A DNA stretch of 64,000 nucleotides from a virus: the IMG/VR virus record IMGVR_UViG_3300029023_000077. The stretch is one strand, 5' to 3'. The notes under the pieces were generated by a model. The model saw nothing but the letters and a program-made list of their open reading frames with translations, was not told the origin of the DNA and did not search any database. Made by a program: the position numbers and the translations under genes. The stretch's first letter is position 1. Each line of letters begins with the position of its first letter. Below, in pieces: positions 85 through 42,161 of this stretch.

Positions 85-276
85 ATGATTTATGAGGATC
101 TAGATATGAAAGAAGTATTGGAAAAAACAGAAAACAGTATTGCAAAAGCTAAAGCTAACGCAGGGGATTCAGTTATAGGACGTGATGAAAATCTGCATAT
201 ACCATTAGACACTAAGCACCAACAGGCTAAGGCTTTGTTTCGGATGCAGGCTTACTGTGGATTTTTCAGGAAGTAA
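85..276 (+). CDS. hypothetical small protein
   Basis: 63-aa ORF, weak start context. Confidence 0.3.
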   Translation: MIYEDLDMKEVLEKTENSIAKAKANAGDSVIGRDENLHIPLDTKHQQAKALFRMQAYCGFFRK

Positions 277-1027
277 TAATGTGAAGAAAAGAGTAGTAAA
301 TGTTTGTATAATTGCGCTAATGCTGGGGGTTTGTATTTACTTGGCTAAAGACCGAAGTGATATTCCTAGCTCACCTAATCAAGAAGAAGTTGAGGAGGTC
401 TTGGAAACAACTACAGCAGTGGCACAGGTAATTGATTGTAAGCCAGAATTGATTGTAAAAGAATCTGATCAGTTCAAGGCTTATTTTAGTTATGCAAATG
501 ATTCTTTAAGGATATGCGATGAATCGTTTGCAGAGTGTAAGTTGTCAAAGATAGGCACTGTAAAATACGATGGGTATTATGAGGTAGAGTATTTATTCAA
601 CCTTAGTGGATCGATTGAGGGTCTGTATTCTGATACACCATGCGTTGATACAGCAAAGTTAGATATTATTAACCCTTATTTAGTAGATATCGCAGGACAG
701 CAGATGATAGTTGAAGACTCAGCTTATCAGAGTATGCAGGATAAATATTACAAACTCAGTTATAAAACTGACAGTGATATTAAGATATCTAATGAAGTAT
801 TTCAGTATGGTATATATTCTGCTGATATTGAAGGTACTGTCACATATCATGTGAAGACAACAGAACCTTCTAGTGCATTGGGGTTGATAGAACGAACAAA
901 CCGTGTTGATTTGACACCACAAGCAGTTCGTATTCGTCATTCCCAGGCAGCTAACAGTATTTATGGTTACACAATCATCAGATTGCCTAAGGGTTTTAGT
1001 AAGGAGGATTTATGCAGAGACGTTTAA
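257..1027 (+). CDS. membrane-anchored hypothetical protein
   Basis: 256-aa ORF; N-terminal hydrophobic helix VVNVCIIALMLGVCIYLA. Confidence 0.5.
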   Translation: MDFSGSNNVKKRVVNVCIIALMLGVCIYLAKDRSDIPSSPNQEEVEEVLETTTAVAQVIDCKPELIVKESDQFKAYFSYANDSLRICDESFAECKLSKIGTVKYDGYYEVEYLFNLSGSIEGLYSDTPCVDTAKLDIINPYLVDIAGQQMIVEDSAYQSMQDKYYKLSYKTDSDIKISNEVFQYGIYSADIEGTVTYHVKTTEPSSALGLIERTNRVDLTPQAVRIRHSQAANSIYGYTIIRLPKGFSKEDLCRDV

Positions 1028-4905: not shown

Positions 4906-5971
4906 CCTTTTGTTCGCAGGTGATTTGCACAAGAGGCATAAAGACATATCAACCATCGAAGGGTATGTGAAGTGTACGCATGCGGTACAGGCTCAGTTAG
5001 AACGTGTAATTCAAGATCGGCATGTTGATTACTTTATAAGTCTCGGTGATTGGTATGATAAAGGGTATGCTGCTGACATATCAGCTGCATTATCTGACTG
5101 TGATGCTGATATTCAGATGTCTAAGGTCTTGAATGGTAACTTCTATGGATTGATTGGAAACCATATACGATTGAGTATGGATTCTAATCCGGAGTTGCAC
5201 TTAATTCAACCGCATGCCTATTTGAGAAGCAGGCAGCCTGTTACACGCAAGGATCAAATCATACACACACCTGGAATGTTAAGGATAAATGACGTACAGA
5301 TATCATTCCAGCATTATGATATGGGTTTAAGTAGTGTGGCAGATTACAAGCCTAAGAGAGAATCTTGGGCAAAGTACCACATTGCATTATTCCATACACC
5401 ATTAGTTGTGCCGGGTTATAAGTTAATCGACACACAGTATGGTTACAATATCTCATCCAATAATGATATTGCTTATACATTGGAGAATGTAGATTTGGCA
5501 ATCTGTGGTGATATACATAAACCACTGGGACAATTTGATATTAACAAGCCAAATGGCACAAAGACTGTTATGATTGTGCCGGGCTCACTTACAAATACAG
5601 ACGCAGGTGATGCAAATCGCCATGCGTCTATTTCTATGCCTTTTATTCAGATAGGTCTTAATTCTGAAGTTAAGATTCAGTATATTCCGTTTGACTTGTT
5701 AACTAATACGGTGACGTTTAAAAAGAAGAATATTGAACAAGCACAGGACAAGATGAAAACGTTACGTGGTAAAAGTTTAGAGAATCTGTATAACCCTGAA
5801 GATGTTGTGGCGGCTCTAAGTCACAGAGAAGATACACTCTTATCACTAAATGCGTTTATGGAGTCTAAAGGGTACACTCAAACTGATAAACAGCTTATTC
5901 TGAGTGTAATGCAAAATCCAGAGGATATTTTAAACCTAGTGAAGATATGGCAGGGTGAGAAGATCGTATAG
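4883..5971 (+). CDS. calcineurin-like metallophosphoesterase, SbcD/Mre11-like nuclease
   Basis: Motifs GDLH, LGDWYDKG (GDxxD), IGNHI (GNH) in canonical order. Confidence 0.7.
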   Translation: MTENYWTNLLFAGDLHKRHKDISTIEGYVKCTHAVQAQLERVIQDRHVDYFISLGDWYDKGYAADISAALSDCDADIQMSKVLNGNFYGLIGNHIRLSMDSNPELHLIQPHAYLRSRQPVTRKDQIIHTPGMLRINDVQISFQHYDMGLSSVADYKPKRESWAKYHIALFHTPLVVPGYKLIDTQYGYNISSNNDIAYTLENVDLAICGDIHKPLGQFDINKPNGTKTVMIVPGSLTNTDAGDANRHASISMPFIQIGLNSEVKIQYIPFDLLTNTVTFKKKNIEQAQDKMKTLRGKSLENLYNPEDVVAALSHREDTLLSLNAFMESKGYTQTDKQLILSVMQNPEDILNLVKIWQGEKIV

Positions 5972-5989
5972 TAGGAAGGAGAAATTAAA

Positions 5990-6328
5990 ATGGATATAAA
6001 AGCTGCTGCTGAGAAATACAAGAAGTGTCAGGAAGATTTCATCTCCATGAGGACTAAGGAGGAAGTTATGCTTAACACATTCTTTGAGAGGATACGTTCC
6101 ATAAAGGAACCAATCTTTGAAGGGAAGGTAGCGATACCAGAAAATGCAAATCTCAAAACATTGGTGCCAGAATATTATGTGGAACATCCTAATCAGGAAG
6201 TTTTAGATGCACAAATTGATGCAGTTAATGAGATGCTTGATAAAATTAACGAAATTCTGGTTCTTAAATGTGAGGAGGCAGAAAAATGCTATTCAGAGTA
6301 TCAGGTGCTCGCTTCAGAGAAGCGCTGA
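5990..6328 (+). CDS. hypothetical protein
   Basis: 112-aa ORF with RBS GGAAGGAG. Confidence 0.45.
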   Translation: MDIKAAAEKYKKCQEDFISMRTKEEVMLNTFFERIRSIKEPIFEGKVAIPENANLKTLVPEYYVEHPNQEVLDAQIDAVNEMLDKINEILVLKCEEAEKCYSEYQVLASEKR

Positions 6329-7299
6329 TAGGTGTTGCAGGAGTTGGAACCAAGAAACCTGTGAACCTGACATTTACGCCTGGGTCTTTAAGGATTCAGT
6401 CGAGTAATATCATTATTGTAGAGGAAAACATTGAAGTGCTTGAGCAAGACACGGATTATGAATCTTTTTCTGCGACAATGAATAATACAGTGGATCTAAT
6501 AGATAGTGATGAAGTGCTTAACATTGCAGTAAATGGAGACACTATGACCTTGAGTCAAACGCTTCTGAATTATACAGTTGGTCGGGAATATGCAGAAGCA
6601 ATAGAGTATAAGGAAGTTTCTAATGACTATGAGCAGATTGACAGGAATCAATTAAGCAATATTGTCAAAGATATACGAGCTATAGAGCTTATAACTAAAA
6701 CACTTGGTAAAGATGCATTTGCAGTCTATGTTTATAATGGCAGGTGCTTTATAGATGGACAGTGTATTGCCTATGAAGCTCCGTTAAATCTGCCGAATGC
6801 TGGTGTTACAAATAAGGTCCTTAAGGAACTTGTACGTGTTTGCAGGGGCAATACAAGTGCTTGTGTACAGGATAAAGTTTTATCTGTGAAATCGGCAAAT
6901 AAAAGGATTTTGGTTGCGACAGATGTAGTGGATATGCAGCATGTTAAAGTGCTGCAGTCTATATCTTCAAATATGAAATTACTCACAAGTAATTTTGATA
7001 TTAGTCCGTACACAGGTATATTGGAGACATTCCTAAAGGTGTATAGTGGTTCTTTAGCAAATATCACTATTGGTGAAGATGGCATGTTTGTATTTATGGA
7101 TAATGGTGAAGCTAAAGTTGTTGCGGGTAAACAAGTTGATAGGATTTGTTCTATTCAGCTGTCTATGCAACAGGCTGTGTGTATGAGTCATATCATGGGA
7201 TCTCTAGGTGGAATAGATATTTATGGAGGTAATAATAAAATATGCTTAGTACAGAAGAGCAGCAACAAAAAATTAACTCTTGCAGGGAGCGTTTATTAA
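6286..7299 (+). CDS. hypothetical protein (weak resemblance to sliding-clamp N-termini)
   Basis: 337-aa ORF; MLFRVSGARFREAL... start resembles DnaN/gp45-type clamps, only by eye. Confidence 0.4.
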   Translation: MLFRVSGARFREALIGVAGVGTKKPVNLTFTPGSLRIQSSNIIIVEENIEVLEQDTDYESFSATMNNTVDLIDSDEVLNIAVNGDTMTLSQTLLNYTVGREYAEAIEYKEVSNDYEQIDRNQLSNIVKDIRAIELITKTLGKDAFAVYVYNGRCFIDGQCIAYEAPLNLPNAGVTNKVLKELVRVCRGNTSACVQDKVLSVKSANKRILVATDVVDMQHVKVLQSISSNMKLLTSNFDISPYTGILETFLKVYSGSLANITIGEDGMFVFMDNGEAKVVAGKQVDRICSIQLSMQQAVCMSHIMGSLGGIDIYGGNNKICLVQKSSNKKLTLAGSVY

Positions 7300-31525: not shown

Positions 31526-32479
31526 ATGTTTTTAATTGTATTAAGTATTTTATTATTCATTGCAGCATTTGTTGGCTTAGGCTTCAAGAGGTTTGATGTA
31601 GAGGTAGATGGGTGTGTAGAAGATGTGATTAAGTGGAAGATCAATTTTAAGCAGGTATTAAGCCTACTTGCTTTTATTTTGATTATTCCAGCTTGTATTG
31701 CGAAGGTACCTGCTAATTCTGTTGGTATCTTATACTCGCCGTTTACAGGCACAAGTGAAATAACTTTATCGGAAGGCTACCATTCAAAGAACCCATTAGA
31801 TACTGTTTACAACATATCGTCTGAGGTGCAGACAATGTCCGTGTCTAATTTGACTACACAGACAAAGGATGCTCAATTTGTTAACTCAACGCTTGACATT
31901 AAGTACCGTGTCGATCAGGATAAAGCATTCTTAGTGTTTAAGCAGTTTAAGACTTTGGATAATATGTCACAGAATCTTATTATCCCTACAACACAGAGAG
32001 TATTGGAACTTATCACTACGAGATATAATGTTATGGACGTCCTTGGTGAGAGTAGAAGTCAGATTTATGCAGAACTTGAGGCAGACTTATCAAAAGAACT
32101 TGCTAAGTACGGTGTAGCATTTTATTCAATCTCTATTTCTGATATGGATGCAGGGTCTGAAATTGAAGCTGCTATTACTGCAGAGGCTGTAGCTAAGAAA
32201 GCTGTAGAAACTGCAGAGCAGGAGTTATTGAAGACAGAGACAGAAGCTAAGAAGAAGGCTGTAGAAGCACAGGCTGCTCAGGATGCTGCTAAGATTGAGG
32301 CTGAGACAAAGATTATTCAGGCACAGGCTGAAAAAGAAGCTAATGAGCTGTTACAGCAGTCTCTTTCACAGCATATTCTTGCTCAGGAATGGATTGCTAA
32401 GTGGAATGGTAAAACACCTACATATTATAGTGGTAGTGCCAATGACTTATTACTTAACATGGGTAATCTTGAGGAGTAG
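31526..32479 (+). CDS. SPFH / band-7 (stomatin-prohibitin-HflKC) membrane protein
   Basis: N-terminal TM helix, then SPFH core and alanine/glutamate-rich coiled-coil tail EAKKKAVEAQAAQDAAKIEAETKIIQAQAEKEA. Confidence 0.65.
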   Translation: MFLIVLSILLFIAAFVGLGFKRFDVEVDGCVEDVIKWKINFKQVLSLLAFILIIPACIAKVPANSVGILYSPFTGTSEITLSEGYHSKNPLDTVYNISSEVQTMSVSNLTTQTKDAQFVNSTLDIKYRVDQDKAFLVFKQFKTLDNMSQNLIIPTTQRVLELITTRYNVMDVLGESRSQIYAELEADLSKELAKYGVAFYSISISDMDAGSEIEAAITAEAVAKKAVETAEQELLKTETEAKKKAVEAQAAQDAAKIEAETKIIQAQAEKEANELLQQSLSQHILAQEWIAKWNGKTPTYYSGSANDLLLNMGNLEE

Positions 32480-33746: not shown

Positions 33747-33968
33747 ATGTTCTTAGAAAATATTGACTCTCACACACTATTTATAATTGGGATAGCAATT
33801 GCTGTCTTAGTCATTGCAAAAATGATAGGCAAGGCGGTGAAGTTATGCGTAGCTTTAGTCATTGTGATTATAGTGCTTAGCTTTGCCGGTGTATTTGGGT
33901 CAGATGGGTTATTTAGTTCAAACATACCTGACACATATTATTGTCTTAATACAGGAGGTTATAGATGA
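33747..33968 (+). CDS. small two-TM membrane protein
   Basis: 73 aa with two hydrophobic helices. Confidence 0.45.
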   Translation: MFLENIDSHTLFIIGIAIAVLVIAKMIGKAVKLCVALVIVIIVLSFAGVFGSDGLFSSNIPDTYYCLNTGGYR

Positions 33969-34615
33969 ATCTTTGTGATTTGAAGATTGGTGATGCTATA
34001 ACAGTAAAAGCTTCACATGGTTTGGACTGTATTGAGTTCCAATCTACAATTGCAGGCAGTGTGAATGGTATAGCTGTAATGGATCCAGTTATCAGCTCGT
34101 CAAAGCTGGTAAATTTTGTATCAGATTTTGTTAAGACAGATATCCTGTATGAAGCTAGTAATAGTGCTACTTACATATTTACGAATGTACATATTCTTAA
34201 TGAAAAGGATATGAATGGTAAGTTAATGTCCTTTATCCATTGTAGGGATGAGGGTATGCTCTTAAATAGACGAGAGACTAAACGTTTTGTTGTAAATGAA
34301 GTTTGTGTTTTCTCACCTGGTCCACACAGGGCAGCTGTGAATGCTACGATTAGAGATATCAGCCTGGACGGTGTATGTATTGTAAGCACGCTAGTTGCAT
34401 CAGTTGGAAGTATCGGGAGATTCTCTTTTATTCCAGAGAAAGTAAAGGGATTAGGGAATATTTCAGAGGAGATAGAAATCTGTCGTGTTGTAAATGACCC
34501 AGAGAGTGATCGTGTTATGTGTGGTTGTAAATTTACATCACGTAACAATATGATAAATAAGTACATTGCAGCTTATCAGAGACAACTGCTGAAAGATAAG
34601 GCTAATCCTAGTTAA
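33965..34615 (+). CDS. PilZ-domain protein (putative c-di-GMP receptor)
   Basis: RRETKR (RxxxR) followed ~30 aa later by RDISLDGVCIV (D-x-S-x-x-G). Confidence 0.5.
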   Translation: MNLCDLKIGDAITVKASHGLDCIEFQSTIAGSVNGIAVMDPVISSSKLVNFVSDFVKTDILYEASNSATYIFTNVHILNEKDMNGKLMSFIHCRDEGMLLNRRETKRFVVNEVCVFSPGPHRAAVNATIRDISLDGVCIVSTLVASVGSIGRFSFIPEKVKGLGNISEEIEICRVVNDPESDRVMCGCKFTSRNNMINKYIAAYQRQLLKDKANPS

Positions 34616-34708
34616 ATTGGGTTAGCCTATCTGTTGAAGAATATTATTTTATGTAAAACTTGACGTAAAGTTGTAAGGAACTATATTATATAATGAGGTG
34701 GTGATAAA

Positions 34709-35839
34709 ATGATTGATATTTCAAAAGAAAGAGCTGGCATGACCAAAGAAGTTACTATAAACCTTGAGTCAGTTAGATATAGCTGCGAATTACAGTTACG
34801 CAATAAATTAACATGTATTGTTGGAGATAGTGGTAGAGGAAAAACAGAGTTTACACGACAGCTACAGTATCCATTAACAAGAGTAGCTGTATCTAATGGG
34901 TATCAAGTTGTAAATTTAACAAATGTGTTATTTCAACAGTCATTACAATTTGCACTAAGACACAATAAGAATAATGATAAAGTGTCCAAATTCTTAAATG
35001 AATATTGGAGTAATTTAGATAACGTGCCATATCAAAATTGTATTTTGATAATTGATGATGAAGAATTTATTAAAACAGAAGAATTTGCAGTATATTATAA
35101 TACAGATATATCAAATTACTTTGTTATAATTGATAGATCTGATCTACATCAGTTGTCATACTCACCGTCCTCTATATATAAATTTGTAGCACAAGGAAAA
35201 AATCACTATATAGCAGAATATTATGATTTTAATTGGGACCCAGAGGCATGCATTGATTACATTATAGTAGAAGGAGTTGGTTCTGATTATATCTTTTTCA
35301 AAGAGATGTTCAAGTCTAAATTTGTTGTCTGTAATCCTATGCAATTTTCTGACTTGAATAGTGGTGGTAGATTTAATGTAGTGAAAATGTTAGAGACAAA
35401 CACTAATATATTTCAGGGAAAAACTATTATGCTGCTGGTTGATTATTGTGCATTTGGTAGTAATATTCAAAGTTTGCAGAACTTGTGTTCCAAATTAAAT
35501 ATGAGGTTACTTTTGAATCCAAAATACCTTTCATTTGAGTATATGCTGCTGAAAAGTAATCTAATTAAATGTGATATTGATAATTTATTGTCTAAAGAGC
35601 AAGTTACTTGTAGTAATGTAGAAGAATACTGTACTAGGAAGCTGAGAGAAGTGACTAATGGTACTTATTATGCTTATAGTAAGGCTGGTTCTGATTTTAG
35701 TGTATGCTATTATAAAGATTGTTGTCAAAATCAGAGTAATAGGGGTGACTGCTCACATAGACTGCAGTACATTAATAAATCTAAAATTATGGAACTTCTA
35801 AGGAAAACAGATTTTGAATTTCTTTTAGACTTAAAGTAG
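34709..35839 (+). CDS. P-loop NTPase with Toprim-like C-terminal region (OLD/DUF4435-like?)
   Basis: Walker A GDSGRGKT, Walker B-like CILIIDDEE, later YIIVEGVGSDYIFF (Toprim-type Glu); lies in a markedly AT-rich segment. Confidence 0.45.
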   Translation: MIDISKERAGMTKEVTINLESVRYSCELQLRNKLTCIVGDSGRGKTEFTRQLQYPLTRVAVSNGYQVVNLTNVLFQQSLQFALRHNKNNDKVSKFLNEYWSNLDNVPYQNCILIIDDEEFIKTEEFAVYYNTDISNYFVIIDRSDLHQLSYSPSSIYKFVAQGKNHYIAEYYDFNWDPEACIDYIIVEGVGSDYIFFKEMFKSKFVVCNPMQFSDLNSGGRFNVVKMLETNTNIFQGKTIMLLVDYCAFGSNIQSLQNLCSKLNMRLLLNPKYLSFEYMLLKSNLIKCDIDNLLSKEQVTCSNVEEYCTRKLREVTNGTYYAYSKAGSDFSVCYYKDCCQNQSNRGDCSHRLQYINKSKIMELLRKTDFEFLLDLK

Positions 35840-35846
35840 GAGGTAT

Positions 35847-36314
35847 ATGTGTATGTTGTATATCTATATCGAAGAAGATGATAAGCCATTGCCAAGTGAT
35901 TATATGTCAAGGGTTTCCGACTGCTTTGATGGTATTTATTTGCCTGAATGGTTTAGTGATCCATTTGTCAGAGAAATGATTGAAATTATTGATAACTCTG
36001 TTGTTGAGCAAAACAATACTACAGACAGCATTAATATCTTTAATTCTGTTTTAGGTAACATACCTCCACAGAATTTGTCAACTGGTGTAAAAGCTCTTAT
36101 ACTGTTGTATAAAACAGATCTGAAGATTGATGGTGACAGGCTAGGTGATAATTGTATACCATTATTATTAAGAATTGCAGACAAGAAAGATATAACCATA
36201 TCCCTTGGGCATTTTCCAGCGTTTCCTGATAAGTTTGATGCAATAATTGTCAATAACGGTGTAAAGATTCACTCAGACATGGAGTTCTTTCATTGGAGAA
36301 TAAACCTAGTGTGA
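35847..36314 (+). CDS. hypothetical protein in the AT-rich islet
   Basis: 155-aa ORF with RBS GGAGG; LSTGVKALILLY resembles an ABC signature motif. Confidence 0.45.
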   Translation: MCMLYIYIEEDDKPLPSDYMSRVSDCFDGIYLPEWFSDPFVREMIEIIDNSVVEQNNTTDSINIFNSVLGNIPPQNLSTGVKALILLYKTDLKIDGDRLGDNCIPLLLRIADKKDITISLGHFPAFPDKFDAIIVNNGVKIHSDMEFFHWRINLV

Positions 36315-36329
36315 TATAAATAGATAAAC

Positions 36330-36364
36330 AGCTTAGACTTGAAATAGTCTGGGCTGTTTTTTCA
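36330..36364 (+). terminator. rho-independent terminator
   Basis: AGCTTAGACT-tgaaat-AGTCTGGGCT (two G-U pairs) then GTTTTTTC. Confidence 0.6.
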
Positions 36365-36579
36365 ATTGCCTTAAAATTTTATTATCAGCTTACCATATAT
36401 ATTTGAGGATATATTTTATATATCAGAAAGTGAGGAATTTATTTTATGAGACACAAAATGCGTAAAGGTTTTATCTTAGGTGTAGTTTCAACAGTCGTTA
36501 GTTATTGTTGTTACTGTATGGTAGAGGATTACGTTATGTCAAAGAAAACAACTATTTAAAATCAGAAAGGAGTAATTTT

Positions 36580-37806
36580 ATGTTAAAGAGAATGTGTAAA
36601 GTAGGTTTAGGTGTGGCTGGTGTTGTAGGAGCTTATGGTTTATATAAGCTCACTAAGGATATGAATACAGCTGTAGAGACCTGTGATGTAACAGACAGTC
36701 AAGAAGATAGTAGCGCTACTGCTGAAGATACTGAAGCTAAGATAAAGAGGCTTCGGGTTGAATTAACAGGAATGTTTAAGGAAACAGGTGACTATCAGTT
36801 CGTAAACCACTTAGAGGAAGCTATAAGGGAAGGAAGTACAGTTCTTATTGTTGGCCTGATTAGTTATAGAATTTCCCTTATTAATTGGATGAAAGAGTAT
36901 TACGAAGCATCCGGTAAGAATTTGAATATTGTAGATCCAGTACTTAATGCTAAAGCAGTTAAAGCTTGCAATGAACCTACAGTATATGGGGCATCAAGAG
37001 TATTAGAATCTGATGCAATTGATGTAATATTTAAAATTGATCCCCCTAATGATGTTACAGATATTGAATTGTTACCAACTGTATCAGTACATCTACCAGG
37101 TTATCAGCTGTTTGAAGGTATTGACATTATTGAGGATGGTTACACGAAGCAGTATATCGATAAGGCTGTTGAGCTGGGTAGTCATGTTCTTATTGCTGGT
37201 GAAAATTCGGGATTCAAAGCTCAGTTTATAGACCATCTTGGAAGATATGCAGAGGATAAGTTAGGTTATTTACTCAATTCCTGGGATATTGAAGACATAT
37301 TGCCTTCTTCTGGAGCAAGTAAAAGATTTAGTTTGACTGTTGCAGAGAAGGATATTTCTGAGTTGGAACATAAATTCTATACGCCACATGATTATGATCT
37401 GATTTTAAATGTTTGTAAGGTTGAGGAAATGACGCATCTACAGGTTGTGGCAAGATCATTCAGCTTGGACACATCTATTGAATTGTACAATGCTCTGAAA
37501 CTGGTTGGATATACTTTTGAACAGCCTGTTGAAGGCATCAATTTTCTTGTAAAGATTTTGCAGAAAGAGGCTGAGGTTATTGTTGTTGGTCCAGACAGTA
37601 CTGACAGAAGTATACTCTGTGGTATTCTTAATACAGCAGCTTCTGACCTTTCTGAAATTAAAGTTATTGATTCTAAGTGCGTATCTAAAGAAGATGCGTT
37701 ACAAAAAGGAATTGTTAAAGAATCATGCGTCATACTCAATATTTCAGGATTAGGAGGAGCTAAGCGGATTAGCTATACATTTTGTGAAAGAGAAAAGGAG
37801 AATTAA
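36580..37806 (+). CDS. membrane-anchored hypothetical protein
   Basis: ATG 36580 after RBS GAAAGGAG; N-terminal helix VGLGVAGVVGAYGLY; ORF open from 36505. Confidence 0.5.
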   Translation: MLKRMCKVGLGVAGVVGAYGLYKLTKDMNTAVETCDVTDSQEDSSATAEDTEAKIKRLRVELTGMFKETGDYQFVNHLEEAIREGSTVLIVGLISYRISLINWMKEYYEASGKNLNIVDPVLNAKAVKACNEPTVYGASRVLESDAIDVIFKIDPPNDVTDIELLPTVSVHLPGYQLFEGIDIIEDGYTKQYIDKAVELGSHVLIAGENSGFKAQFIDHLGRYAEDKLGYLLNSWDIEDILPSSGASKRFSLTVAEKDISELEHKFYTPHDYDLILNVCKVEEMTHLQVVARSFSLDTSIELYNALKLVGYTFEQPVEGINFLVKILQKEAEVIVVGPDSTDRSILCGILNTAASDLSEIKVIDSKCVSKEDALQKGIVKESCVILNISGLGGAKRISYTFCEREKEN

Positions 37807-37809
37807 ATA

Positions 37810-38616
37810 ATGAATTACTGGACAGATAAGGAAAGAAGAAGAATAGCTGCGGTTGAATGGAATGAATATATCCATAATAATTATAAGGCTGAAATCAATG
37901 AGTGCATTAAGAAGACTGAGTTATGGGATGAGTTTTGTCCTTTAGAATATTCTGATGTTGTAGGTAGTGAGGTTGAATCTATGAAGGTTCTACAATTAAC
38001 CACAACACAGGCAATCAAACACTGCAGCCAAGAAGGTGAGAGAATAGCAGTATTGAATTTTGCTAGTTTCAAAAATCCTGGTGGTATGTTTTTAAATGGT
38101 TCTGGTGCGCAGGAGGAATCCCTATGCCATGAATCTCTACTGTACCCTGTATTAAAAGCATTCAATGCAAGTTATTATGCGGTTAACCATAATAACCTGA
38201 ATAGGGCTCTGTATAAAGATAAGTTGCTGTATTCTGTGGATATTCCATTCTTTGATATGAAGGCAAAGAAACCAGCAGACAAGGCGGATGTTATCACATG
38301 TGCAGCTCCTAATTGGGGTGCCTACGCAAAGTATCATGAGCCTATTTCTGATAGAGACATTGCTTTAAATCGTGAGATGCTTCGTTCACGGTTTGAGAAG
38401 CTCTACTTTGTTGCAGCAAAACATAATGTTGATACATTGATTCTTGGTGCATGGGGATGTGGTGTTTTCAAACAGAATATACATACTGTTATTGATGTAA
38501 TGCTTGAAGTAATAATGTCATATCAGGCAAATATTAAACATATTGTATTTGCTGTGCCTGATGCGGATAGTTTTAGAATATTTGATAGCAGGGTGAGAAA
38601 AGCAGTAGAAGCATAA
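37810..38616 (+). CDS. microbial-type poly(ADP-ribose) glycohydrolase (DUF2263/TIGR02452 macro domain)
   Basis: VLNFASFKNPGGMFLNGSGAQEESLCHESLLY = PARG GGG-x6-8-QEE signature; LILGAWGCGVFKQN second conserved block. Confidence 0.8.
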   Translation: MNYWTDKERRRIAAVEWNEYIHNNYKAEINECIKKTELWDEFCPLEYSDVVGSEVESMKVLQLTTTQAIKHCSQEGERIAVLNFASFKNPGGMFLNGSGAQEESLCHESLLYPVLKAFNASYYAVNHNNLNRALYKDKLLYSVDIPFFDMKAKKPADKADVITCAAPNWGAYAKYHEPISDRDIALNREMLRSRFEKLYFVAAKHNVDTLILGAWGCGVFKQNIHTVIDVMLEVIMSYQANIKHIVFAVPDADSFRIFDSRVRKAVEA

Positions 38617-41679: not shown

Positions 41680-42073
41680 AGGCCTGTAATGGTTTCGACA
41701 GGGTTATGAGGTTAAGTATTGCATCGGTCAGTCACCTATAACCAAAAAACAAAAAAATAGACGCTACAAGACGCCCTATGGCTATTGCTGCTTAATCTCG
41801 TGAGAGGTTGGTTGTTATAGTTCCGTTGCTACCGGGTAATGGGACGATGGTGATAGCTACCTCAACGTTTGCTACTATAAAGTAAATAGCTATGATGCTA
41901 GACTCCCAATCTTAGTATTGATATACAGCCTCGCAAGGAGGCTAGGTGCACAAACAATGGCCATGTAAGGTTTGTTAATTTTACCTGTATATGACTGTAA
42001 CGAAAATTAACTAAGATGTAGATATACTTATTAGTACTTTCTTTGGACACGGGTTCGATTCCCGTCAGGTCCA
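41680..42073 (+). ncRNA. ssrA: tmRNA (SsrA-like transfer-messenger RNA), tag ATRRPMAIAA
   Basis: 5' AGGCCUGUAAUGGUUUCGACAGGG parallels GGGGCUGAUUCUGGAUUCGACGGG. AAAAAAAUAGAC-GCU... parallels E. coli AAAAAAUAGUC-GCA at the resume codon. The tag frame GCU ACA AGA CGC CCU AUG GCU AUU GCU GCU UAA lies at 41763-41795. 3' end is T-arm ACGGG-UUCGAUU-CCCGU plus acceptor CAGGUCC-A pairing with 5' GGCCUG (G3:U). Length ~394 nt. Confidence 0.8.
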
Positions 42074-42161
42074 CTTAGATACTAGGAGAGGCTAAGACTC
42101 TAGTAGTGATGAGACCATCACACTAGTAGCTTTAAGTAAACAAAGCGAAGGAGATTTATTT

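Follow-up and report, generated by a model that had tools for sequence, protein, structure and literature searches.

Two genes on the plus strand, referred to here as ORF1 and ORF2, lie side by side in the window, a 64,000-nucleotide stretch of viral DNA (IMG/VR record IMGVR_UViG_3300029023_000077). The first-pass annotation had described both, as a 376-aa protein and a 155-aa frame bounded by an intergenic region and a terminator, and the frames (34709–35839 and 35847–36314) and both bounds were found. The 93-nt intergenic region upstream of ORF1 carries a promoter-like site and the Shine-Dalgarno sequence GAGGTGG, and an intrinsic terminator closes the unit (Table 1). Terminator-like sites were expected by chance only 0.8 times. 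Promoter-like sites numbered 19 in the region with 17.2 expected, which is no excess, and so the promoter was assigned by position only. ORF2 has the Shine-Dalgarno sequence TAGGAGGT, which shares bases with the stop codon of ORF1 and is positioned 9 nt ahead of the ATG at 35853. Homologues of ORF2, and gene calls in collinear contigs, also begin at the equivalent start. Judged from sequence, the true start of ORF2 is most likely this ATG (MLYIY..., 153 aa) and not 35847, and the first description of the gene is revised to that extent.

Table 1. Features of the ORF1–ORF2 unit (positions are those of the window)
Feature	Position	Strand	Size	Details
Promoter-like site and Shine-Dalgarno sequence 5′ of ORF1	34660–34708	+		10/12 consensus match
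−35 element	34660–34665	+		TTGACG; 16-nt spacer to −10
−10 element	34682–34687	+		TATATT
ORF1 Shine-Dalgarno sequence	34695–34701	+		GAGGTGG
ORF1	34709–35839	+	376 aa	Minimal ABC-type ATPase, Toprim-like domain and Cys-rich C-terminal region
ORF1 residues 1–172	34709–35224	+		Compact ABC-type nucleotide-binding domain
ORF1 residues ~180–285	35246–35563	+		Toprim-like α/β domain
ORF1 residues 286–376	35564–35836	+		Helical region with E305, Cys cluster C333-x4-C338-C339-x8-C348, and K359
ORF2	35853–36314	+	153 aa (155 aa if start is 35847)	DUF4869, ABC-like domain without P-loop
Intrinsic terminator	36326–36366 (stem-loop 36326–36359)	+		14-bp stem, 6-nt loop, T-run; closes unit

With a promoter-like site, a Shine-Dalgarno sequence on the ORF1 stop codon that would couple the genes, and a strong terminator, ORF1 and ORF2 form a single self-contained unit, as originally proposed. 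A conserved third gene was considered and rejected: downstream of the unit the window has a 408-aa gene, to which the 406-aa gene flanking the pair in two other loci (L001 and L045) is unrelated. No fusion of ORF1 and ORF2 relatives was found, except for a 266-aa fragment (P0062) spanning the gene junction, and none of the top 120 DUF4869 matches was a fusion protein.

The unit had been described as an AT-rich islet, and this was borne out by ORF1, whose GC content (0.299, against a gene mean of 0.372, sd 0.022; z = −3.24) is the lowest of the 71 genes in the window. A scan of the 64 kb in 1.7-kb segments placed the global GC minimum at 34900. ORF2 deviated only mildly (0.340, z = −1.4). Synonymous codon usage, proposed at the same time as a check, showed nothing unusual in either gene.

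In ORF1, a P-loop ATPase is followed by a Toprim-like domain whose glutamate E188 is invariant. The two nucleotide-binding motifs noticed at the outset, GDSGRGKT (residues 39–46) and IIDDEE (113–118), are conserved in the family. They correspond to Walker A (G39–T46) and Walker B (I112–D117), which are followed by R143; a signature motif is absent. Among the 77 full-length family members, GxSGxGK[TS] was present in 76–77, D116 and D/E117 in all, and R143 in 76, with zero conserved positions from residue 47 to 115. In the structure model, the two Walker motifs are ~70 residues apart, with two short helices between them. The PADLOC PtuA model matched ORF1 residues 13–122 (E = 2 × 10−5) over profile positions 6–118 of 411. 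Using hhalign, the ORF1 family aligned with an 8-sequence OLD alignment over a β-hairpin and Walker A (E = 7.6 × 10−5, probability 62%), and with P2 Old over the Walker A region only (E = 0.029). Pfam, NCBIfam and PHROGs returned sub-threshold P-loop matches to ORF1 and nothing else. PDB sequence searches gave only Walker A and B matches to AAA+ proteins, faint matches to receiver domains, and a match to DSAD1.

The Toprim domain of OLD proteins has a conserved Glu after β1 and a DxD after β3 (PMC12065111, PMC10568477). The C-terminal domain of ORF1 runs from β1 (184–187) and E188, through G220-K/R221, to β3 (239–243) and D245, and to β4 (266–268) and S275-F-E277. In the model, E188 and D245 thus take the places of the Glu after β1 and the Asp after β3, and the order of secondary structure fits a Toprim fold. 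The stretch IIVEGVGSD (185–193), first likened to the Toprim glutamate region, is conserved in the family; E188 was found in 77 of 77 full-length members, and D245 and E277 in 76 each. The second Asp of the DxD is replaced, position 247 being Ala in 37 members, Cys in 19, Ser in 11 and Asp in 2. The canonical motif is therefore reduced to Dx[A/C/S], and catalysis is not assured.

A Foldseek search, as had been suggested for ORF1, was run with its model against 350,542 PDB chains. OLD (6p74) ranked first and was the sole match with E ≤ 1 × 10−3, which makes it the closest solved architecture by a weak, borderline match (E = 8.7 × 10−4, probability 0.91, 525 columns spanning both domains, TM 0.24). 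GajA (8x5i_B) ranked seventh. The PADLOC AriB model matched one of 34 family C-domains (E = 1 × 10−5), from a member absent from the ten candidates that were rescanned. One member matched JetD (E = 1.3 × 10−3), and one matched Pfam Toprim below threshold (E = 0.087). No consistent Pfam match was found in the C-terminal two-thirds of the protein, in the 77 full-length members or in the 34 C-domains. The C-domain profile did not match OLD proteins significantly by hhalign (E = 0.35–0.48), and an OLD Toprim HMM run against 173 family sequences gave a best E of 0.045. We infer that the domain is a Toprim-like, metal-dependent nuclease with E188, D245, E277 and E305 as invariant residues. In the tail beyond it, C333, C338, C348 and K359 are each present in 77 of 77 members, and C339 in 74. 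The Cys cluster is missing from a short bacterial subfamily of ORF1 relatives, and the region weakly resembles the anti-DSR2 protein DSAD1 at a non-significant E of 0.03.

ORF2 belongs to Pfam DUF4869 (PF16163), scoring 87.0 bits against a gathering cut-off of 28.9 (E = 1.2 × 10−24, profile positions 8–126 of 128), a family with no assigned function and for which no literature was found. Its structure model resembles Rad50, SMC and ABC heads. The stretch LSTGVKALILL, picked out initially as resembling an ABC signature, proved to be a genuine one, being conserved and placed, in the model, at a helix N-terminus on an ABC-like fold as an LSGGQ-type signature should be. The conserved motifs are L77-S78-T-G80-V-K82, G100-D-N-C103 and H122 (155-aa numbering). 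The signature reads LSxGxK across the family and LSGG in distant members. No P-loop or Gly-rich loop was found anywhere in 28 diverse DUF4869 members, and the Walker B position is occupied by an acid in only 20 of these. DUF4869 is a further ABC-like domain; its P-loop and catalytic acid have been lost, and what it keeps are the elements that act across the interface in ABC dimers: an LSGG-type signature and, at the D-loop position, another motif. As far as we could find, neither the ABC-like fold and signature motif of DUF4869 nor its obligate ATPase–Toprim partner has been recorded before.

ORF1-like and DUF4869 genes were adjacent at every locus examined, in phages, Clostridia, Collinsella and plasmids and in both gene orders, and no full-length ORF1 relative among those examined lacked an adjacent DUF4869 gene. 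The partners co-evolve (Mantel r = 0.87, p = 1 × 10−4), and ORF2 was more conserved than ORF1 in 41 of 45 comparisons. The family comprises at least 7,341 DUF4869 clusters at 90% identity and 1,384 ORF1 representatives at 50% identity, and most members are found in bacterial chromosomes and plasmids. A scan of IMG/VR with the ORF1 alignment gave no matches, a GTDB scan gave only 3 loci, and INPHARED phages had no DNA similarity to the region.

The suggestion that the unit was acquired horizontally is supported by its mobility. Related phages carry the pair at differing positions relative to a block of genes 80–98% identical, while the pair itself is 48–51% identical, and at one hotspot the flanks were 92% identical and the cargo differed. 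Bacterial copies, in which overlapping genes are frequent, are isolated cassettes beside an integrase or IS elements; others lie on plasmids. Tandem arrays of diverged pairs also occur. Close relatives of the window phage showed no empty site, the pair being fixed in that lineage.

The annotation had suggested that the unit is of the OLD, PARIS or AbiL type, and this assignment was not supported. No Pfam or PADLOC model of these systems matched the window proteins, and the proposed PADLOC scan (v2, which has no model for ORF1 or ORF2) yielded only the partial PtuA match, to the N-terminal 110 residues. The ATPase motifs are split over two proteins, an arrangement not seen in OLD or PARIS. ORF1 has the N-terminal ABC-family ATPase of the OLD family but lacks the dimerisation insert and the same-chain signature (PMC10568477); in addition, the profile match is confined to the Walker A region and the DxD is incomplete. 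The likeness is closest to class 1 OLD (phage P2 Old; Thermus scotoductus OLD, 6p74), which is similarly a phage-borne, stand-alone cassette outside defence islands (PMC10568477) and has a parallel motif series, hhhhE(G/D) ... GK ... hhhhD. Class 1 OLD proteins, however, are ~520–590 aa long and encoded by a single gene, whereas ORF1 has 376 aa, an obligate second gene (DUF4869), an extra Cys-rich tail, and Dx[A/C/S] in place of DxD.

PARIS is likewise a two-gene ABC and Toprim system, often found on phages and satellites, in which the ATPase restrains the nuclease until triggered (PMC11464382, PMC12409363). There, the complete ATPase (AriA, ~55 kDa) and the nuclease (AriB, DUF4435, ~35 kDa) are separate proteins; in the present pair the nuclease is fused to the ATPase core, and the second protein is an ABC-like domain lacking a P-loop. 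Neither window protein matched the AriA or AriB models, and a PDB profile search missed AriB. Gabija (GajA with the UvrD-like helicase GajB) was rejected, as no helicase adjoins the pair, either in the window or at any of the related loci. Septu was rejected since the partner is DUF4869 and not the HNH protein PtuB, and PtuA was matched over its N-terminal quarter only. PtuA-type proteins of Septu and retrons (AAA_15, 'OLD-ABC') have their own signature motif and long insertions, and ORF1 is not accompanied by a retron RT or ncRNA.

Nucleotide-binding domains of asymmetric ABC heterodimers (TM287/288, EcfA/A′, CFTR NBD1/2) were among the structural neighbours of both ORF1 and ORF2. These heterodimers also have one consensus composite site, made of Walker A and B from one chain and the signature of its partner. 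Each partner in them retains a P-loop, and nucleotide is still bound at both sites. The present pair differs in that ORF2 has no P-loop and ORF1 no signature, and none of the heterodimers named is coupled to a nuclease.

Taking the observed architecture, partition of motifs, obligate adjacency, co-evolution and mobility together, we put at about even the chance that the pair is a horizontally mobile 'ABC ATPase + Toprim nuclease' module of a previously undescribed form, with a predicted complex, composite site, nuclease activity and defence role. By analogy with ABC–Toprim systems whose nuclease is gated by the ATPase (PMC10568477, PMC11464382, PMC12065111), the most likely role of the module is exclusion or defence by means of a nuclease. 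Coupled translation of ORF1 and ORF2 would yield a head-to-tail heterodimer with one composite ATP site, to which ORF1 would supply Walker A and B and ORF2 the signature. In this way ORF2 would restrain the nuclease of ORF1. On a signal from an invading phage or plasmid, ATP binding, ATP hydrolysis or partner association might then change and free the nuclease to act on nucleic acid (DNA or tRNA), so that competitors would be excluded or infection would be abortive. A broader reading is possible but more tentative: DUF4869 and its partner may be a new system for immunity or exclusion, widespread among Firmicutes and Actinomycetota of the gut and the large phages that infect them, an obligate 'half-and-half' ABC heterodimer in which a cis chain (Walker A and B) and a trans chain (signature, D-loop position) would form a single ATP site that gates a fused, divergent Toprim nuclease.

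Pairings of an ABC ATPase with a Toprim domain recur in prokaryotic immunity (OLD, Gabija, PARIS, retron-OLD, Wadjet), and how the ATPase controls the nuclease in such systems is still an open question (PMC10568477). The module, with ~530 residues in total, is the smallest ABC–Toprim version found. As its ABC motifs are divided between two chains, only one ATP site could form, and the module would offer a simple system for studying ATPase-to-nuclease coupling. For DUF4869, a Pfam family whose thousands of members occur in bacteria and phages of the human gut, the analysis supplies a fold, a partner and a function open to testing. The large gut phage lineage of the window, which is very common, also gains a candidate gene for inter-phage exclusion.

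The pair decays from one side only. In L041/L044, a clean 915-bp deletion removed the ORF1-like gene and left DUF4869 intact; in L045a and L057B, DUF4869 was kept beside ORF1-like remnants without the Toprim half. The Toprim-bearing gene was lost or truncated in three loci, and no locus showed the reverse, loss of DUF4869 with the ORF1-like gene kept. Such a pattern agrees with a harmful effector held back by its partner, and would also suit a toxin–antitoxin-like or addiction module, in which ORF1 is a toxic ATP-dependent nuclease and DUF4869 an antitoxin that binds the ATPase head as a pseudo-partner, with no shared catalytic ATP site and no sensing of invaders, and in which loss of the module kills the cell or element. 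Also in keeping with such a module are the apparently tight coupling of translation, with the bacterial genes often overlapping, and the isolation of the cassettes, whose settings are unrelated and close to IS elements or an integrase. So is the lack of defence genes nearby, which counts against a defence role: in PADLOC, ten genes next to bacterial copies had no convincing match indicative of a defence island.

One locus, L057C, provides a natural test of the composite ATP site, with a mixed result. Its ORF1-like P-loop is degenerate, and the partner retains LSSGVK and GDNC with only H122 changed (H to Y). Retention of the DUF4869 signature next to a degenerate P-loop favours the toxin–antitoxin-like reading. 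Pattern scans for P-loop-degenerate variants found no loci, and one was recovered through an exact-sequence index. Strict conservation of the trans-acting ABC elements S78, G80, K82 and GDNC is, however, hard to square with a mere plug. Antitoxins usually evolve faster than toxins, and here DUF4869 is more conserved than the supposed toxin. Overall, we regard this alternative as rather unlikely. Toxin–antitoxin-like and defence roles can coexist.

It is quite unlikely that the pair is an accessory of phage replication, repair or recombination comparable to RecF (ABC ATPase) with RecR (Toprim and Cys4 zinc finger), or to Rad50/Mre11, in which case DNA ends would be bound or processed by the Toprim-like domain. 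In bacteria the pair occurs patchily, as a single copy, with unrelated neighbours and also on plasmids, and the ORF1-like gene suffers the natural deletions and truncations described above. Between phages whose replication genes are 80–98% identical, the pair is only ~50% identical and variable in position. Diverged pairs in tandem are what arms-race genes typically show, and the Cys module is missing from a whole subfamily.

A nuclease-based system also supposes that the C-terminal domain is a nuclease. It could instead be a receiver- or HAD-like regulatory domain that binds metal or phosphoryl groups, the pair then being some other ATP-driven switch. The incomplete DxD and the non-significant OLD Toprim profile match would agree with this, as would an E-D dyad after β1, an Asp after β3 and a Ser/Cys after β4, which approximate the receiver pattern. 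The C-terminal profile also faintly matched PDB receiver domains, but with non-significant E values of 0.46–0.96, and the modelled domain has four strands rather than five. The sole significant structural neighbour is the OLD nuclease, and the sub-threshold family matches are all to Toprim proteins (AriB, JetD, Pfam Toprim). A non-nuclease domain is very unlikely.

Least probable of all is a counter-defence role, in which the pair or DUF4869 alone would mimic or poison host ABC-ATPase immune complexes (Septu, PARIS, Gabija, Lamassu, Wadjet) through dead heterodimers: a P-loop-less ABC head would suit a dominant-negative partner, genes near the pair in the window include counter-defence candidates, among them one for a PARG-like macro-domain protein, and the Cys motif has its slight likeness to DSAD1, but that likeness is non-significant, most family members reside in bacterial chromosomes and plasmids, and DUF4869 always adjoins, and co-evolves with, its own cognate ATPase.

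The ORF1 and ORF2 reading frames proposed in the first-pass annotation were both located, as was the strong terminator said to close the unit. For ORF2, the most likely start is ATG 35853 (MLYIY..., 153 aa), six bases downstream of 35847. The Shine-Dalgarno sequence TAGGAGGT overlaps the ORF1 stop codon, 9 nt upstream of this ATG, and MLYIY is the start of every ORF2 homologue and of the genes called in collinear contigs. A further Shine-Dalgarno sequence, GAGGTGG, lies with a promoter-like site in the intergenic region upstream of ORF1; promoter-like matches in the region were no more numerous than expected by chance, so this site is assigned from its position only. Given this layout of promoter-like site, Shine-Dalgarno sequences and terminator, the pair appears to be transcribed as one unit and translated in a coupled manner. 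The suggestion of an AT-rich islet held for ORF1, which had the lowest GC content of the 71 window genes (0.299, mean 0.372, sd 0.022, z = -3.24) and includes the lowest-GC point of the entire 64 kb, but ORF2 showed only a mild deviation (z = -1.4). Neither gene was unusual in synonymous codon usage. The first-pass observation as a whole was thus confirmed, while its interpretation was supported in part.

Features of the ORF1-ORF2 pair and its surroundings (window positions unless ORF1 residues are indicated; fractions are counts over 77 diverse ORF1 family members)
Feature	Position	Strand	Details
SPFH/Band 7 protein	31526-32479	+	Pfam 3.8e-24; phrog_200 2.6e-56
PilZ-domain protein	33965-34615	+	9e-8
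Promoter-like site	TTGACG 34660-65		TTGACG, 16 nt, TATATT; within 93-nt intergenic region
ORF1	34709-35839	+	376 aa
Walker A	ORF1		GxSGxGK[TS]; 76-77/77
Walker B	ORF1		hhhhD116-[DE]117; 77/77
R143	ORF1 143		76/77
E188	ORF1 188		usually E-D dyad; 77/77
G220-K/R221	ORF1 220-221		72/77
D245	ORF1 245		76/77
S/C275-F-E277	ORF1 275-277		E277 76/77
E305	ORF1 305		76/77
Cys cluster	35705-35752 (ORF1 333-348)		C333-x4-C338-C339-x8-9-C348; C333, C338, C348 77/77; C339 74/77
K359	ORF1 359		77/77
ORF2	35847-36314	+	155 aa as first described
Strong terminator	36326-36359		14-bp stem and T-run, downstream of ORF2
Hydrophobic 37-aa ORF	36428-36541	+	MRHKMRKGFILGVVSTVVSYCCYCMV...
Gene 3' of pair	36580-37806	+	N-terminal hydrophobic segment; no family match
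Microbial-type poly(ADP-ribose) glycohydrolase/macro-domain protein	37810-38616	+	Pfam PARG_cat_microb 1.8e-27
tmRNA	41680-42076	+	full length

Standard libraries yielded only sub-threshold P-loop matches for ORF1. The best library match was a partial one to PADLOC PtuA (2e-5, residues 13-122), and PADLOC v2.0.0 contained no model for either ORF1 or ORF2. A word-index search returned six relatives, and an exhaustive profile search raised this to 1,384 representatives (50% identity), with E<=1e-10 for 636. The P-loop and Walker B-type motifs claimed for ORF1 proved real, being near-invariant in the family. No position between residues 47 and 115 was conserved, which leaves neither a signature motif nor room for an OLD-type dimerisation insert. 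There is little doubt that the N-terminal domain is of ABC type.

The C-terminal domain is likely to be Toprim-like. Its elements follow one another in Toprim-type order: beta1 (184-187), E188, helix, strand, helix, beta3 (239-243) and D245, then helix, beta4 (266-268) and the SFEY helix. With Foldseek, whose alignment was independent of domain orientation, the full-length class 1 OLD nuclease (6p74) was the sole match at E<=1e-3 among 350,542 PDB chains (E 8.7e-4, prob 0.91, 525 aligned columns); GajA of Gabija ranked seventh, with PtuA and retron ATPases below. Class 1 OLD is the nearest solved neighbour of the module. The sequence-level link to Toprim nucleases is thin. Single scans of 34 C-domains of the family gave one match each to PADLOC AriB (1e-5), JetD (1.3e-3) and Pfam Toprim (0.087). 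Profile-profile and HMM comparison with an OLD alignment, made from P2 Old and seven plasmid homologues, matched the N-terminal hairpin and Walker A (E 7.6e-5) and left the Toprim part unmatched (E 0.35; best HMM E 0.045). The motif series run parallel, hhLVEGx(T/S)(E/D) ... GK ... hhhxDxD in OLD and hhxxE(D/G)xxSG ... GK ... hLhhDxxAFG in ORF1, the second Asp of DxD being A, C or S in the ORF1 family. The Toprim glutamate proposed at first reading stands as regards the invariance of E188 and the order of elements, but the DxD is incomplete and OLD profiles fail over this part. The Cys cluster is confined to the subfamily of the window protein and is absent from a short (~325 aa) bacterial subfamily. 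In a profile versus PDB comparison, its motif CYYxDCC...C gave a non-significant resemblance (E 0.03) to the SPbeta anti-DSR2 protein DSAD1/YotI.

ORF2 clearly belongs to Pfam DUF4869 (87 bits, cut-off 28.9); no mention of DUF4869 or PF16163 was found in the literature searched. A saturated profile search gave at least 7,341 clusters at 90% identity, and all hits were single-domain proteins of 145-185 aa. Among 28 diverse members, the motif L77-S78-x-G80-x-K82 (155-aa numbering) had S and K in all 28 and G in 27. It is placed at the N-terminus of a helix (79-89), as in ABC proteins, and distant members carry LSGGVK, the textbook ABC signature. This conservation indicates that the signature-like motif remarked on in ORF2 is genuine. 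G100-D-N102-C103 is conserved at the D-loop position, and H122 follows the next strand in 26/28. A P-loop was absent from all 28 members, and the acid at the Walker B position was not conserved (20/28). Taken together, these features argue that DUF4869 is an ABC-like domain that keeps the trans (dimer-interface) elements and has lost the cis elements for ATP binding and hydrolysis. ORF2 is most probably such a P-loop-less domain with a true signature.

Every full-length ORF1 relative examined was directly adjoined by a DUF4869 gene, in either gene order, and none lacked one among the loci examined. Pairs were found in phage contigs (L001-5, L017-33, L045-48), in bacterial chromosomes beside a tyrosine integrase (L006-9), in other gut Firmicutes contigs (L010-16, L037-44), and on Ruminococcus albus 7 pRUMAL02, an Agathobacter rectalis replicon and a Collinsella aerofaciens replicon; on these last three, the RefSeq names are 'DUF4869 domain-containing protein' and 'hypothetical protein'. 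The identity matrices of the two genes correlate (Mantel r 0.87, p 1e-4, 10 distinct pairs), with ORF2 the more conserved in 41/45 comparisons. Neither ORF1-DUF4869 fusions nor a conserved third gene around the pairs was seen. ORF1 and ORF2 almost certainly form a co-inherited two-gene module. In a Clostridiaceae MAG (L015 2114-3096), the ORF1-like gene is broken into two frames, which points to a frameshift pseudogene or else to misassembly.

In line with the horizontal acquisition proposed earlier, the pair is mobile, as comparison with phage contig L001 shows. A gene block common to both (window 20.6-27.2 kb) shows 80-98% protein identity; the pair lies upstream of it in L001 and 8 kb downstream of it in the window, and is itself only 48-51% identical. 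Phage relatives of L001 hold different cargo at the site of its pair, between flanks that are 92% identical: a truncated L001-ORF1 orthologue (ATPase domain only, 60% identity), then a DUF4869 gene, a second DUF4869 gene and an intact ORF1-like gene from a distant subtype (24% identity). Within the lineage of the window itself, the pair keeps a single fixed site, and the collinear contigs showed no empty one. At locus L057 (104-4806), three diverged ORF1-like/DUF4869 pairs stand in tandem, next to an AAA_14 protein and a HipA-like kinase. In an Agathobacter-like chromosome, a clean 915-bp (305-codon) deletion in some strains coincides almost exactly with the ORF1-like gene and spares DUF4869, a presence/absence polymorphism (L041/L044 versus L042/L043, around 5450-6440). 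The Toprim-bearing gene was thus lost or truncated in three loci, with DUF4869 kept each time. Some of these cases may share an origin, as pairs L057B and L057C appear to be paralogous.

An ABC dimer holds ATP between Walker A from one domain and the signature from its partner. ORF1 has only the Walker A-side elements and ORF2 only the signature-side elements; with the elements so divided, a head-to-tail ORF1:ORF2 heterodimer would form a single composite ATP site, which we put forward tentatively. The P-loop is degenerate in two ORF1-like genes of L057 (DLSATKKT, DDGATKKT), and both of their partners have Tyr in place of H122. The partner of the decayed, ATPase-only gene also has the signature LSSSMK and GDKF for GDNC; that of the full-length gene keeps LSSGVK and GDNC, the His being its sole change. 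The two pairs are probably paralogues, and so roughly one event, and they neither confirm nor refute a composite site.

The architecture, motif partition, obligate adjacency, co-evolution and mobility of the pair are established; beyond them, we infer a mechanism in which ORF2 would restrain the ORF1 nuclease. This is proposed because of the asymmetric decay and by analogy with OLD, Gabija, PARIS and Septu, characterised ABC-Toprim/ABC-nuclease systems in which the ATPase gates the nuclease (PMC10568477, PMC11464382, PMC12065111). An invader cue would alter nucleotide state or partner binding and so release the nuclease; in a phage, the outcome would be exclusion of competitors, as by P2 old.

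The module is best read as a variant of the ABC ATPase and Toprim conflict systems and would work like them. The proposed OLD/PARIS membership did not hold, however: although OLD was the top Foldseek match, no sequence model placed the module in either family. Unlike OLD, ORF1 lacks the dimerisation insert and the second Asp of DxD; unlike OLD, PARIS, Gabija and Septu, its ATPase chain has no signature motif, its partner is DUF4869, and the functions are split at another place. Gabija and Septu membership was likewise ruled out, no sequence model placing the module there. A conflict or exclusion function is slightly favoured; no recognised defence genes neighbour the bacterial copies. Less probable alternatives are an addiction module of TA-like kind, a repair accessory resembling RecF/RecR, a counter-defence decoy, and a switch that is not a nuclease.

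The window belongs to a large phage. All 71 of its large ORFs (1-64000) lie on the + strand, GC skew is positive throughout the profiled stretch (28-43 kb), and a helicase, a clamp loader and a tmRNA are encoded. No DNA match to INPHARED phages was found for the window. Many human-gut metagenomes contain collinear contigs, 126-350 kb in length, so the source phage is probably very large. In collinear contig L017 (2458-6021, window ~27.1-31 kb), a run of genes for DUF488, an AbiEii-family nucleotidyltransferase, a YpsA/DprA-like protein and DUF1653 separates the clamp loader from the pair, which thus sits in an accessory-gene stretch. The PilZ-domain protein directly 5' of the pair may bind c-di-GMP; its gene and the SPFH/Band 7 gene somewhat further upstream are unusual phage cargo. 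Gene calling in the collinear contigs also picks up the 37-aa ORF between the terminator and the next gene (e.g. L018 8482-8595). That next gene most likely starts at ATG 36580 (408 aa) and not at an upstream TTG (433 aa). The PARG-type protein, two genes 3' of the pair, is a candidate reverser of ADP-ribosylation by host defences. For the tmRNA, ARAGORN gave the tag peptide ATRRPMAIAA, and Rfam RF00023 scored 87.3 bits (gathering score 47).
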